Assembly (NCBI RefSeq): GCF_054482595.1
Contig: NZ_CM137008.1
Reading direction: 5' to 3' (one strand)
Length of the DNA: 64,000 bases
A program made the position numbers and the translations under genes. A model generated the notes under the pieces. The model did not search any database, had not been told where the DNA came from, and saw only the letters and a list, made by a program, of their open reading frames with translations. Positions 42,613-49,477 of the stretch are shown here, piece after piece (positions within the stretch are counted from its first letter, which is position 1; every line of letters starts with the position of its first letter).

Positions 42613-42640
42613 TGTGTACCTAAACGTGTACCAATTTTCT
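42613..42640 (+). repeat. 28-bp direct repeat (distal copy), possible Int arm-type site
   Basis: GTGTACCTAAACGTGTACCAATTTTCTC identical to 49450-49477. Confidence 0.8.
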
Positions 42641-42692
42641 CACTGTAGCAGTGTTGTATCTCGTATAAACAGGGAACTAAATATGCTGTTAA

Positions 42693-43574
42693 TCATGGGG
42701 CAGCATCATTAGGAGGGTATACATTGACCGATGTACTTACACGATGAAACTCTAGTATGTTGCCAGTATGGTGACCAGGGATAGCTTCAAACACCCCAAG
42801 AAATCGGTACAGTGTCCTGTTCAACTCATCACGAGAATGTGCCATAACAATTCGTTTATCCCAGCGTTCTGTGTATCCCTCATCATCCTTTATATTCCGC
42901 TCTATGATTTTGTTACCATCATCAGTCAATTCATTTCCCCAATCTGAATTTCCATATAGTTTTGGAAACCAAACCATGCATTTTCCTGATAGACCCATTG
43001 CTTCACTTATGTGAGAAGGAATGCTCCAACCGCCAGACTGATGATGTCCTTTGTTGTAACCGAAACAGTTCAAAGCATCCCGGTGGTATCTGAAGACGGC
43101 ATCTGGACCTACAGATATCCTTCCTGCCTTAAGATGAGGACGAGCTGTATATTTATTATCATAATCCCATTCTTTGAATTTTTTATCTTTAATCATTCTA
43201 TTTTTACGATTGCGTATCAACTCAATAAATTCATTGATATAACGATCGAAAATTTCAAGACTTATTTCGCTGGCGGGAATTCTTTTCTCTAAAAATCCTG
43301 TAACTTCAGTAATATCCATACGACGTTTCGCATCATCTATTTGTGATTGCTCACTGTTGTGATGCCCTTCATCAATTTCAAGATAAAGTTCCAGTTGTGG
43401 GAAAAATAAATCTGCCAAATAGATTTTTCCATTTTCTTTTCTGACACATTGCTGGCAGACAAATTCAATGTCGGGATCATTTAAAAGATGATAAATGCGA
43501 GTTACTGCATAATGTTCCCATCGTTTTTTTGAGGTTTTCGTAAGTGAACGTAGGATGTAATCAGTTTTATCCAT
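42693..43574 (-). CDS. hypothetical protein (293 aa), N-terminal restriction-endonuclease-like (PD-(D/E)xK / DUF559-like) motif
   Basis: motif YLADLFFPQLELYLEIDEGHH resembles the D...(I/V)ExDG core of Vsr/DUF559-type nucleases; cargo position in the element. Confidence 0.5.
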   Translation of the reverse strand: MDKTDYILRSLTKTSKKRWEHYAVTRIYHLLNDPDIEFVCQQCVRKENGKIYLADLFFPQLELYLEIDEGHHNSEQSQIDDAKRRMDITEVTGFLEKRIPASEISLEIFDRYINEFIELIRNRKNRMIKDKKFKEWDYDNKYTARPHLKAGRISVGPDAVFRYHRDALNCFGYNKGHHQSGGWSIPSHISEAMGLSGKCMVWFPKLYGNSDWGNELTDDGNKIIERNIKDDEGYTERWDKRIVMAHSRDELNRTLYRFLGVFEAIPGHHTGNILEFHRVSTSVNVYPPNDAAP

Positions 43575-43845
43575 TTATATGCCTTCCTTCTTTGTTCTTC
43601 ATGTAATGTGCTTTTTCTTATGGCGATAGTGTTACCTATCGCCATAAGATGCGTTAGTATTTTTTTAATCTAACTGTTTATACTGTTAACTTCGATGATT
43701 TTCTATTTTATATCATGTGGTTAAGCGGTGGTGAGTTGGTGAGGAGTGAAAAGTCGAATCTTCCCCTTTGTGATTTTTGCTCGTTCTGGATCTGCCCGGT
43801 CAGGCGATGTGGTGGGGGGGGGTAAAAAGTTTTTTTAGGTTTTAC

Positions 43846-43938
43846 TGTTCACACTGTTCACCTCTGGTTTTTTATTAATAATTTCATGGTGATACAGGGT
43901 GAAGATACGGTGAAGGGTGAACAGTGGATTGTTCACCT
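43846..43938. promoter_or_regulatory. cluster of TGTTCACC-type iterons (P4 ori/crr-like)
   Basis: about six copies of TGTTCAC(C)/GGTGAACA in both orientations within 95 bp. Confidence 0.6.
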
Positions 43939-43989
43939 TGTGGCAATGGCCAGAAAGGAAAAGACCGGCTGTTGCCGGTCTGAGTGAGG

Positions 43990-44565
43990 TTATGTTGCTA
44001 CGGGTTCGTCGCATTTCGGTAGCCAGTCGCCGTAGCTTTCCTCTTTCAGCGACAGATTGGTTTGTATCCCCTGCTTAGTGTGCCGCTTCTCATAATTCAG
44101 GCCGTACTCTTTCAGCATCATGGGCAGCCCCAGCCCGAACATTTTCAGGCTGAGTACGTTCCTATACCCGTTAGCCTCCATATAGGCCAGATACGCGTGA
44201 TAGAGATATTTACGATAATTACGCGGGATGATGCTGGCATTCCCCATAAACATCCCGTTGGTCTGCGGGAGCATTTCCAGATAGCCGCAAAAATCAAACG
44301 TAGGGTCAGCATCGCGCTTGATGCTGAGCGCCTCGTCGGAATTCTGCTGTGACTGGAGCAGTGCGCAGGCTGCCATCGGGTCGCTGAACTTCTGCATGAG
44401 CTGGCGCACAATCACGGCCAGCTCGCGCGCAATTTTATCCCTGAGCTGCGGGTCGCGTTCCTCCGGCGCAATTTGCTCCGGGAAGTGAATAATCACCCGG
44501 CGACGTGACACACCACCGCTGCGGTCGGTGAAGCGCATGGGGTTATTGTTCACTGCCAGAATCAC
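43990..44565 (-). pseudogene. C-terminal remnant of a P4 alpha-type primase-helicase
   Basis: 191-aa ORF lacking the primase/helicase body; sits next to the iterons. Confidence 0.5.
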
Positions 44566-47352: not shown

Positions 47353-47357
47353 TACAT

Positions 47358-48203
47358 ATGTGGACACTACCTTTACCAGATGATGCGGATAGAATGAGCG
47401 AGTTATTAACCGCTTTAACGTATAAAAATGGAAATCCTAAGTATGCTTTAACACAAGATGAAAAGGATAAAATTGAAACTATTTATACTTTATATCACGA
47501 TCGTAAAGCAACTCCCTGTGCTGAATTTTTAGCAGAGGAAATAAGTGATGAAACCCAAAATGCTATAAAAACAGCTTATTCAGAAGTGCAAATAAATGGA
47601 CGGCTTTCAACCCTTCGCTCAAGGATTTTATTAAGTTCTAAAAAATGCCCATTATGTGGGATCGAATCATCAACCGACCTAGATCATTATCTTCCCGAAT
47701 CAATATATAAATGTCTCGCAGTATATTCAAGAAACCTGATACCGACCTGTCATAAGTGCAATAATAAAAAAAGAGCTGGTGTAGCAGAAAATGGAGTTGG
47801 ATTTATTCATGTGTATTATTTTGATGAGCCCGATGGTGTATTTTTCGTTGCCAATACTGAAATGATAGATGGTGCTTTAGTAATTGATTTTAATATCAAT
47901 ATGATCGAGGGTATGACTCGAGAGGTATATGATTCATTATGCTTTCAAAATAGAGTTGTTAACCTAAATGAAAGGTTAAAGATGGAAGCGAATGATTTTT
48001 TAGGGGGGCTCTATACTTCACTTGAAGAAACATATAATTCTGCAGGCCAAGAAGGATTAAGATTATTTCTAAAAAGAACTAGGGATGACTATACCAGACG
48101 TTATGGGCTTAATCATTGGAGAAGAGCATTGATAGATAGTCTATCCGATAATGTGGAGTTCCTTGACGCTGGTTTTATTACTGCCTTAGGAACTCCAGAG
48201 TGA
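47358..48203 (+). CDS. HNH endonuclease-domain protein (281 aa)
   Basis: CPLCG...DLDHYLPESIY...NLIPTCHKCNNKK HNH/zinc-finger motif; start 5 nt after the ATPase stop. Confidence 0.8.
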   Translation: MWTLPLPDDADRMSELLTALTYKNGNPKYALTQDEKDKIETIYTLYHDRKATPCAEFLAEEISDETQNAIKTAYSEVQINGRLSTLRSRILLSSKKCPLCGIESSTDLDHYLPESIYKCLAVYSRNLIPTCHKCNNKKRAGVAENGVGFIHVYYFDEPDGVFFVANTEMIDGALVIDFNINMIEGMTREVYDSLCFQNRVVNLNERLKMEANDFLGGLYTSLEETYNSAGQEGLRLFLKRTRDDYTRRYGLNHWRRALIDSLSDNVEFLDAGFITALGTPE

Positions 48204-48205
48204 GT

Positions 48206-49399
48206 TTACTGGTGGGGATGAATATGTCGTCCCCACCAATTCATCAATTCAATTCTTGCGTGTAAATATGTTGAGCGATTGTAGGCTTTTCGTACTTCAT
48301 TTCTATCTGAATGAGCAAGAGCAGCCTCAATTACATCAGCATTAAAACCGGCTTCATTCATTGCCGTACTTGCAATCGAACGTAAACCATGTGCAACCAA
48401 TTTCCCACCATAACCTATTCGCTTAAGTGCAGCATTGGCAGTTTGGCTATTCATAGGTTGTTTTGGATTATTTCTGCTGGGAAAAACATGTTCTCGATGT
48501 GCACTAATAGGTTTCATCACATCCAGAATTTCTAATGCTTGTGGTGATAAAGGAACAATGTGTTCACGCTTAGCCTTCATTCGTTCGGCGGGAATCGTCC
48601 AGAGTTTGGCATTGAGATCGATCTCTACCCACCGAGCACCAGAAGCCTCAGAAGGGCGCACTAGGGTCAGAAGCTGCCATTCAATAAGACAGCGAGTCGG
48701 AACAGACAGATTCGACATGACCAGGGAACGCATAAGCTTAGGTAATTCTTCTGGCCGTAGCGTGGGCATATTTTGCTTTTTGGGTTTCTCAAAAGCCATT
48801 CCTACACCCGAAGCCGGGTTGGCATCTATCAGACCGGTATTAACCGCATAAATCATTATTTCGTTAATACGCTGAACTAGGCGACGAACCGTCTCTAATG
48901 CGCCACGTGCTTTGATTGGCTCCAATGCTTCAACAATCGTTCTGGCCTTTATATCCTGAACGGGCATCGCACCGATTGCCGGGAACACGTCTTTATCCAA
49001 AGAACGCCAAATATCCTTTGCATAATCCTCTGTGACACTTCTGCTTTTAATCTGGAACCAGTTAGCGGCCACAGTTGAGAAAATGCTGTCTAACTCAATC
49101 TGGCGTTGTGCTGACGCTTGCTCCTGTTGCTGTTGTGGATCCATGCCTTGCGCGAGCGTGGTTAAGTGCTGGTCGCGTATCTGACGAGCTGCTGCGAGTG
49201 TAAGGGCAGGGTATGAGCCGAGACTCAAATTTGTGCGGCTGCTGCTTCCCGGTCGTTGATAACGGAAGCGTCAGAGTTTTTTACCGGAGGTTTTGACGAG
49301 TAAGAACAGGCCATCACCATCATGCAGGGTGAAGTCTTTTTCGCGGGGTTTCGCTTTGAGGATTTCGTTGTTAGTGAGGGGGCGTGTAATGCGCGCCAT
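48206..49399 (-). pseudogene. intA: P4-type tyrosine integrase with in-frame TGA at codon 43
   Basis: N-terminus MARITRPLTNNEILKAKPREKDFTLHDGDGLFLLVKTSGKKL then TGA then RFRYQRPGSSSRTNLSLGSYPALT... in the same frame; stop sits where related integrases have Trp (TGG). Confidence 0.75.
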
Positions 49400-49449
49400 G
49401 TCTGGATCCCTTCCATAATTGGTACACGTTTAATGGACCACAGTATAGC

Positions 49450-49477
49450 GTGTACCTAAACGTGTACCAATTTTCTC
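49450..49477 (+). repeat. 28-bp direct repeat (int-proximal copy)
   Basis: GTGTACCTAAACGTGTACCAATTTTCTC identical to 42613-42640. Confidence 0.8.

Follow-up and report, generated by a model that had tools for sequence, protein, structure and literature searches.

The window analysed here is a 64,000-nucleotide stretch of contig NZ_CM137008.1 (RefSeq assembly GCF_054482595.1) that carries an integrated island at the 3' end of ssrA, the gene of the transfer-messenger RNA (tmRNA). Close to the two ends of this island stand two identical 28-bp direct repeats, GTGTACCTAAACGTGTACCAATTTTCTC. Comparison with related elements indicates that these 28-mers are very probably arm-type integrase (Int)-binding sites from the attP attachment site of a satellite of the phage P4 family that targets the ssrA 3' end. 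The original prediction, made from the letters of the window, had suggested arm-type sites at attL and attR; this suggestion is now supported by the structure of the empty site, by the layout of the P4 attachment site, by the Arm-DNA-bind_3 domain of the integrase and by a concerted change of the repeat motif and of that domain among relatives.

Two 28-bp repeats made of 12-bp units

GTGTACCTAAACGTGTACCAATTTTCTC occurs exactly twice in the window, at 42614-42641 and at 49450-49477. The pair had been recognised as exact, the distal copy being placed one base too low (42613-42640). No third copy was found in the 64-kb window even when up to 3 mismatches were allowed, and at the same tolerance matches were absent from dinucleotide-preserving shuffles of the window (0/100). 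Each 28-mer is a tandem of two 12-bp units, every one of which opens with GTGTACC, and this heptamer, whose internal direct repetition had been pointed out, is thus present twice in each copy, with a 12-bp spacing. Five of the eight GTGTACC heptamers of the window are located within the two short repeat regions. The proximal copy was correctly said to lie just upstream of the integrase start: it is 51–78 nt upstream of the ATG (49399, minus strand). To the two 28-mers of the earlier inventory must be added an inverted partial copy, AATTGGTACACGTTTA, and a degenerate copy, GGACCAC, that it had missed. The repeat features are as follows.

42614-42641, plus strand: distal tandem (P arm, attR side), exact match, units GTGTACCTAAAC and GTGTACCAATTT in a 12-bp phase
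42614-42636: part of the distal tandem conserved in relatives, the 23-mer GTGTACCTAAACGTGTACCAATT
49450-49477, plus strand: proximal tandem (P' arm, attL side), same 28-mer as the distal one, overlapping the putative int promoter
49417-49432, minus strand: inverted arm-type partial copy, AATTGGTACACGTTTA on the plus strand, between the promoter and the int start codon
49435-49441: degenerate second inverted copy, GGACCAC

The objection that the repeat could be a common intergenic motif, of the repetitive extragenic palindrome or bacterial interspersed mosaic element (REP/BIME) type, was examined and rejected: a 30-nt query matched about 38 of 5,426 complete E. coli genomes at ≥95% identity, in 1–2 places each. 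The matches inspected were at the ssrA island, and all those listed were in unannotated intergenic DNA.

The repeats lie inside the ends of the island

A predicted empty site, made by joining window positions 42400-42541 to 49582-49720 (281 bp), was searched against the complete E. coli genomes (n=5,426). The junction was recovered at 281/281 identity in 4 genomes among the matches listed, and 2,569 of the 5,426 genomes have the uninterrupted site as one contiguous match to 80% or more of the query; in the empty-site strain PE164, 160 bp separate ssrA from the end of ypjA. Base-by-base comparison with an empty-site locus (L088; L numbers denote the loci compared), the check that the original prediction had put forward, placed the two junctions between 42541 and 42542 and between 49581 and 49582, the match to the empty site ending at 42541. 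This fixes the actual limits of the ssrA island of this strain at 42542 and 49581, between the ssrA 3' end and the flank of the autotransporter gene ypjA, which ends at 42382.

42542-49581, minus strand: whole insertion, 7,040 bp
49583-49945, minus strand: ssrA (tmRNA), from ARAGORN and Rfam, with smpB beyond
49583-49597, minus strand: attL core, the 15 3'-terminal bases of ssrA, CCGCCAGCTCCACCA on the minus strand
42542-42560, minus strand: attR core remnant, GGGCTGGCGGAGTCTGAAT on the plus strand, comprising the P-side core-type region and the shared GCTGGCGG, defined by comparison with K-12 and relatives

Hence, the 28-mers are sub-terminal, the distal one being 72 bp and the proximal one, on the ssrA side, 105 bp inside the insertion ends. 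The earlier statement that they bracket the element holds in that they lie near both ends; it fails in that both are inside the element and neither forms an end. As sub-terminal sites within the element, they are therefore placed as expected of arm sites. What has been duplicated from the target is the ssrA 3' end at 49583-49597, with its remnant at 42542-42560, and not the 28-mers. A weak echo of the ssrA 3' end, noticed at about 42545-42555 and offered as a possible degenerate att core, proved to be a real att remnant, GGCTGGCGGAG at 42543-42553, in an insertion that starts at 42542. This attR core remnant lacks 5 nt on its chromosomal side (TTGGT) that are found in K-12, L004, L005 and L006, and TGGTGGGCTGGCGGAGTCTGAAT is the form of the core that closes both K-12 CP4-57 and intact satellites. 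In this region, tmRNA was the only structured RNA matched by Rfam models at their gathering thresholds.

These data bear on the idea that the 28-mers are themselves recombination sites or terminal direct repeats, that is att cores or a target-site duplication, as perfect direct repeats enclosing int and all of the cargo would be expected to suggest. The empty-site comparison refutes it: the junctions do not fall at the repeats, the 28-mer is dissimilar to the ssrA target, and its GTGTACC units are unrelated in sequence to the core CCGCCAGCTCCACCA and to attB. Moreover, the two copies of intact relatives have only 23 bp in common, and a free attP (see below) has both copies flanking an ssrA-like core. 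We give this idea practically no credence.

The attR copies of the ssrA 3' end vary in small ways among elements. Despite differing flanks, this copy often reads GCCAGC-CCACCA, with one T absent; the attR regions concerned in this comparison are window 42542-42560, L003 22973-22995, L004-L006 and L011-L013, and the T is retained in the free attP of L081 and in the attR of L017 and L033. Other small attR deletions are of 5 nt in the window, 1 nt in L002 and 6 nt in L029. Excision of CP4-57 has been reported to leave a one-base change in ssrA (PMC3105296).

The same sites at the same places in related elements

The arrangement was surveyed in 80 related loci from IMG/VR, fetched with the intact integrase of E. 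coli strain KMi029 (WP_001592518.1), together with 4 E. coli loci and the window. In this set, GGTAYAC-N5-GGTAYAC is present on the int strand only and at two positions only. The proximal tandem starts about 68–70 nt before the int start (81 nt in one locus) and is conserved, with few exceptions, in the 64 related loci whose sequence extends upstream of int. The distal tandem is at the far element end, about 73 nt ahead of the attR core TTCAGACTCCGCCAGC in those elements where a core is recognisable. Two intact inverted copies are found in L031, L048 and L058 and in the entire GTATACC class described below. Across 61 unique upstream sequences the 23-mer AATTGGTACACGTTTAGGTACAC is near-invariant and its flanks are far less conserved; the five bases that follow it (GAGAA, that is TTCTC on the plus strand) vary across the proximal arms of relatives.

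The circularly permuted 10,182-bp relative L081 provides a contiguous attP. Within about 320 bp, it comprises, in this order, the P tandem, the core CCGCCAGCTCCACCA (a 15-mer identical to the ssrA end in the window), a replacement terminator, the P' tandem, the inverted copies and int.

Fixed spacing also addresses the origin of the distal copy, which could be the leftover int-upstream region of a second, tandem satellite, or could have arisen recently by duplication or gene conversion, in either case with no function of its own. Tandem satellite arrays do exist at ssrA (L004, L006, L011, L051 and L080), and the 5 extra identical bases of the window copies (TTCTC), unconserved in relatives, could hint at conversion. 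However, the sequences flanking the distal and proximal 28-mers are unrelated on both sides, the distance from the distal tandem to the attR core is a constant 73 nt in all relatives that are both single and intact, as well as in the free attP, and P4 has the same P-arm pair. Such an origin is thus highly improbable, and arm sites on both sides of the core remain the preferred interpretation.

The tandem arrays deserve a brief description. Integrative elements are arranged in tandem at ssrA in L011 (10182-10420), L051 (19892-20130), L080 (9712-9950), L004 (5080-5400) and L006 (5240-5600). Two P4-like satellites abut in L011, L051 and L080; their arm classes differ in L011 and L051, and the neighbour element of L080 has a hybrid proximal pair (GGTATAC...GGTACAC). 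In L004 and L006, what comes after the P4-like satellite is a remnant of a different island that bears an integrase.

Two further features of the distal arm were noted. The last 5 bp of the 28-mer (TTCTC, 42637-42641 and 49473-49477) are the same in both window copies, and in the distal arms examined TTCTC was seen only alongside AbaSI-like cargo (the window and L033). Directly core-ward of the P-arm tandem is a block, GAAAGTTGAAT (window 42599-42610, ATTCAACTTTCA on the plus strand), that is kept in both arm classes while the remainder of the spacer around it is not conserved; this block may be a site for another factor.

The arm motif changes together with the N-terminal domain of Int

The related elements fall into two classes of arm motif, GTGTACC and GTATACC, and within an element all direct and inverted copies of both arms agree: among the 16 elements in which both arms are visible, no discordant arm pair was found. 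The Int of strain LR-03 (WP_075606965.1) is an example from the GTATACC class. The two classes also differ in the first part of Int, which has 17 class-diagnostic positions within its first 100 residues. Identities are given below.

Int residues 1-95, identity to the reference: 83–100% in the GTGTACC class, 64–69% in the GTATACC class
Int residues 96-390, identity to the reference: 84–100% in the GTGTACC class, 87–91% in the GTATACC class, the ranges overlapping
Vis-like protein: members at 98–100% identity in both motif classes

As judged from these alignments, the motif switch tracks the N-terminal arm-binding domain of Int, and not its catalytic part or the Vis-like protein. The domains recognised by Pfam in the integrase are Arm-DNA-bind_3, Phage_int_M and Phage_integrase; in an intact homologue Arm-DNA-bind_3 (PF13356) covers residues 8-94 (E = 4.6e-24), and it also matches both fragments of the window integrase (E = 8.6e-5 and 4.5e-8).

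The covariation distinguishes Int from another element-encoded protein that could bind both arms and the int promoter, chiefly a Vis/AlpA-like excisionase (recombination directionality factor). P4 Vis is described as a repressor of the int promoter that is also needed for excision, in a passage of PMC7286903 that cites Piazzolla 2006 and Cali 2004, and intact relatives do encode a Vis-like helix-turn-helix protein of 88 residues. Yet Vis-like proteins are 98–100% identical across the motif classes, L002 and L006 having the identical protein (WP_000556587.1) and different motifs, whereas the N-terminal domain of Int switches with the motif; in addition, the P4 equivalents of the repeats are annotated as attP arm repeats. 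Binding by such a protein is therefore an improbable explanation of the 28-mers, and Int remains the predicted ligand.

A bolder proposal is that satellites in competition for ssrA have at least two arm specificities, GTGTACC and GTATACC, which would have arisen as the attP arms and the ~95 N-terminal residues of Int were swapped together, as one module, on a shared core-binding and catalytic body. We consider this unlikely. If the arm classes were functionally orthogonal, satellites arranged in tandem at ssrA could build separate intasomes and excise independently, without co-excision or scrambling.

The proximal sites overlap a putative int promoter

The proximal tandem coincides with the only promoter-like site in 49300-49650 (one found, 0.3 expected). 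The -35 element of this putative promoter is inside the first repeat unit and its -10 element is just after the second.

49442-49470, minus strand: sigma-70-like int promoter, TTGGTA, 17-nt spacer, TATACT, a consensus match only
49510-49560, minus strand: replacement ssrA terminator hairpin, a terminator-like site in the P' arm, with the core on one side and the proximal repeat on the other

Since the P' units overlap the -35 and -10 elements, autorepression of int can be predicted: by analogy with what is reported for P4, Int bound at the P' units would probably also repress int. In P4, Int represses its own promoter with a contribution of Vis, according to a passage of PMC7286903 that cites Pierson & Kahn 1987 and Piazzolla 2006. 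The overlap raises the alternative that the repeats are promoter or host-factor elements only, such as duplicated -35-like boxes or sites for integration host factor (IHF) or Fis, the TTGGTA within the repeat unit being compatible with a promoter role. But there is no gene for the distal copy to drive, a site read by a host factor would have no need to follow changes in a domain that the element encodes, and no IHF consensus was found in either arm. We judge this alternative highly unlikely as well.

The replacement terminator hairpin is also present in K-12 CP4-57 (L003 1010-1050) and in all relatives. The ssrA-targeting elements, both P4-like satellites and CP4-57, have a near-identical terminator (AAAAAAGCCCGCAGGGCTTGyGCCGTGCGGGCT), and the sequence downstream of ssrA is different in the empty-site strain.

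Proposed mechanism

In the free circle, the order would be the P-arm tandem, about 60 bp, the 15-bp core shared with ssrA, about 105 bp containing the terminator, the P'-arm tandem, the inverted copy or copies and int. The N-terminal arm-binding domain of Int would bind the GTGTACC units in both arms, these units lying on one helix face because of their 12-bp spacing, and its C-terminal domains would bind and cut the core. Bridging of arm and core would build the intasome for integration and, with the Vis-like excisionase, for excision. Integration would split attP and leave one tandem just inside each island end, in attR and in attL, and because of this splitting the two copies would appear as direct repeats about 6.8 kb apart. 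In the integrated state, the 3'-terminal bases of ssrA and its new terminator would both come from the element.

A decayed satellite with intact defence cargo

The region 42300-50000 of the window has 100% identity to several complete E. coli genomes, such as that of strain THO-010. The genes of the island are listed below.

48206-49399, minus strand: integrase pseudogene of the P4-family tyrosine type, annotated by RefSeq as 'internal stop' in the identical locus L001
45670-48203, plus strand: Septu-like PDC-M01 pair (HNH-like protein and AAA ATPase), from RefSeq, PADLOC and Pfam
44723-45289: psu (polarity suppression) pseudogene with an internal stop, from RefSeq
43990-44658: C-terminal fragment of a P4-type primase, from RefSeq
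42693-43574, minus strand: PvuRts1I/AbaSI-like modification-dependent endonuclease, with the Pfam domains PvuRts1I-like_N and SRA (PADLOC mREase_II, E = 4e-122)

The P4 core genes left in the window are limited to the int pseudogene, the psu pseudogene and the C-terminal primase fragment. Among relatives that share int, arms and the ssrA site with it, the full-length ones, such as L002 and L004-L006, have the whole P4 gene set (int, psu, delta-like, sid-like and icd-like genes, the Vis-like helix-turn-helix gene and the alpha primase-helicase) and differ in the cargo between psu and int. Because these same-site relatives carry the complete set, the window element is a decayed remnant of a P4-like satellite, with intact defence cargo. 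Codon 43 of int is TGA, as opposed to Trp in relatives (alignment KKLXRFRY vs KKLWRFRY), which splits the N-terminal arm-binding domain, and the Vis-like gene has been deleted together with most of the replication and regulatory region. With the stop at codon 43, the loss of regulatory and replication genes and the 5 bp missing from the attR flank, the recombination system is dead in this strain and its arm sites are relics. The island can thus be described as an immobilised P4-like satellite kept for its defence cargo.

In the Septu-like pair, an intact two-gene defence candidate, the ATPase (AAA_15/21) matches PDC-M01A of PADLOC (E = 1e-99) and PtuA (E = 1e-73); its HNH-annotated partner matches PDC-M01B (E = 3e-37) and, weakly, PtuB. 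The psu-int slot that holds this pair is occupied in relatives by Drt3, retron St85, ATP-dependent nucleases and other systems. Cargo also varies at another slot, distinct from this one, which directly adjoins the P-arm repeats and has the primase/crr region on one side and attR on the other. This other slot contains the endonuclease in the window (and in L033, as indicated by its matching distal flank), a DUF6998 gene in L002 (5887-6387) and nothing in L004-L006.

Strength of the interpretation

The positions of the repeats, the island boundaries, the architecture of the site, its conservation and its covariation with Int were observed directly. Several points weigh against the interpretation of the 28-mers as Int arm sites. 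(i) The binding of Int and the recombination role ascribed to the 28-mers are read from sequence. (ii) Relatives do not conserve the final 5 bp of the 28-mer: by alignment, the conserved site is 23 of the 28 bp and TTCTC is outside it. (iii) With the window Int cut at codon 43 and the attR flank damaged, the resident protein binds and recombines nothing. (iv) In the circle, the arms adjoin the 5' end of int (~600 bp in all), and the co-inheritance of the two could partly reflect linkage rather than co-adaptation; linkage leaves unexplained that the same substitution is found in five or six separate copies, which argues for one protein reading all of them. (v) The two classes differ by one base per unit, a change that may not amount to a real difference in specificity. 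(vi) No IHF consensus (WATCAANNNNTTR, up to 1 mismatch) was found in 42542-42660 or in 49400-49582; an IHF site has been reported in phage P4.

For the biology of these elements, the analysis adds little: P4 arm-type sites have been known since 1987, reportedly through Pierson & Kahn, and are a textbook feature. The only thread with even mild novelty is the apparent modular swap of arm sites and arm-binding domain among satellites with the same target. The joint switch of arm motif and N-terminal domain on a constant catalytic body would offer a natural starting point for the study of arm specificity in integrases of the Arm-DNA-bind_3 (P4) type. On the practical side, the 23-mer, whose distance to int and to the attR core is fixed, is a simple signature with which both ends of this family of satellites can be located.

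Comparison with known systems

The closest counterpart is P4 itself, whose record (NC_001609) annotates 12-bp 'attP arm sequence repeats'.

3942-3965: P4 repeats by int, two tandem units, counterpart of window 49450-49477
3915-3926: P4 inverted unit at the int start, counterpart of window 49417-49432
4078-4097: P4 core, 20 bp
4151-4174: P4 repeats of the other arm, two tandem units in the orientation of the first pair, counterpart of window 42614-42641

The two elements share two 12-bp-phased units of the same orientation per arm, an inverted unit by int and an overlap of the repeats with the int promoter region, and they belong to one element family (int, psu, alpha primase) with one integrase domain architecture. 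The gaps are close too, about 105 nt in the window against 112 nt in P4 between the P' repeats and the core, and about 62 nt against 53 nt between the core and the P repeats. They differ in the repeat unit (ATGCCCCCAA in P4, GTGTACCTAA/GTGTACCAAT in the window) and in the target, which is the leuX tRNA gene for P4 and the tmRNA gene ssrA for the window element; in addition, the window copy is in a decayed, immobile element.

The arm-type sites of lambda attP (P1, P2 and P'1-P'3) are summarised in PMC2951348. Lambda shares with the proposed system a heterobivalent integrase and closely spaced arm sites, distinct from the core, that are present in both arms and split into attL and attR on integration. 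It differs in the family of the N-terminal domain and in the number and arrangement of sites, and lambda int is not expressed from a promoter inside attP. In KplE1, the P' arm-type sites of IntS overlap the -35 and -10 elements of the intS promoter, and negative autoregulation has been shown experimentally (PMC2951348). KplE1 attL thus shares with the island the location of P' arm-type sites between a tRNA-type target and int, over the int promoter. Integrase and motif are different, and autoregulation, experimental in KplE1, is only predicted for the window element.

Finally, CP4-57 of K-12, with its integrase IntA, shares with the window element attB, the attR core TGGTGGGCTGGCGGAGTCTGAAT and a similar replacement terminator. 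Its sequence also reveals candidate arm sites in corresponding places: 12-bp-phased repeats TTGGGCCTATCA/ATGGGCCTAAAA with an inverted TTTAGGCCCAAC by intA (L003 1090-1150), and TTGGTCCCATTG/TTGGTCCTAAAA about 52 nt from the attR core (L003 22895-22925). However, the cargo and backbone of CP4-57 are unrelated to those of the island, and its arm motif is GGKCC, not GTGTACC.

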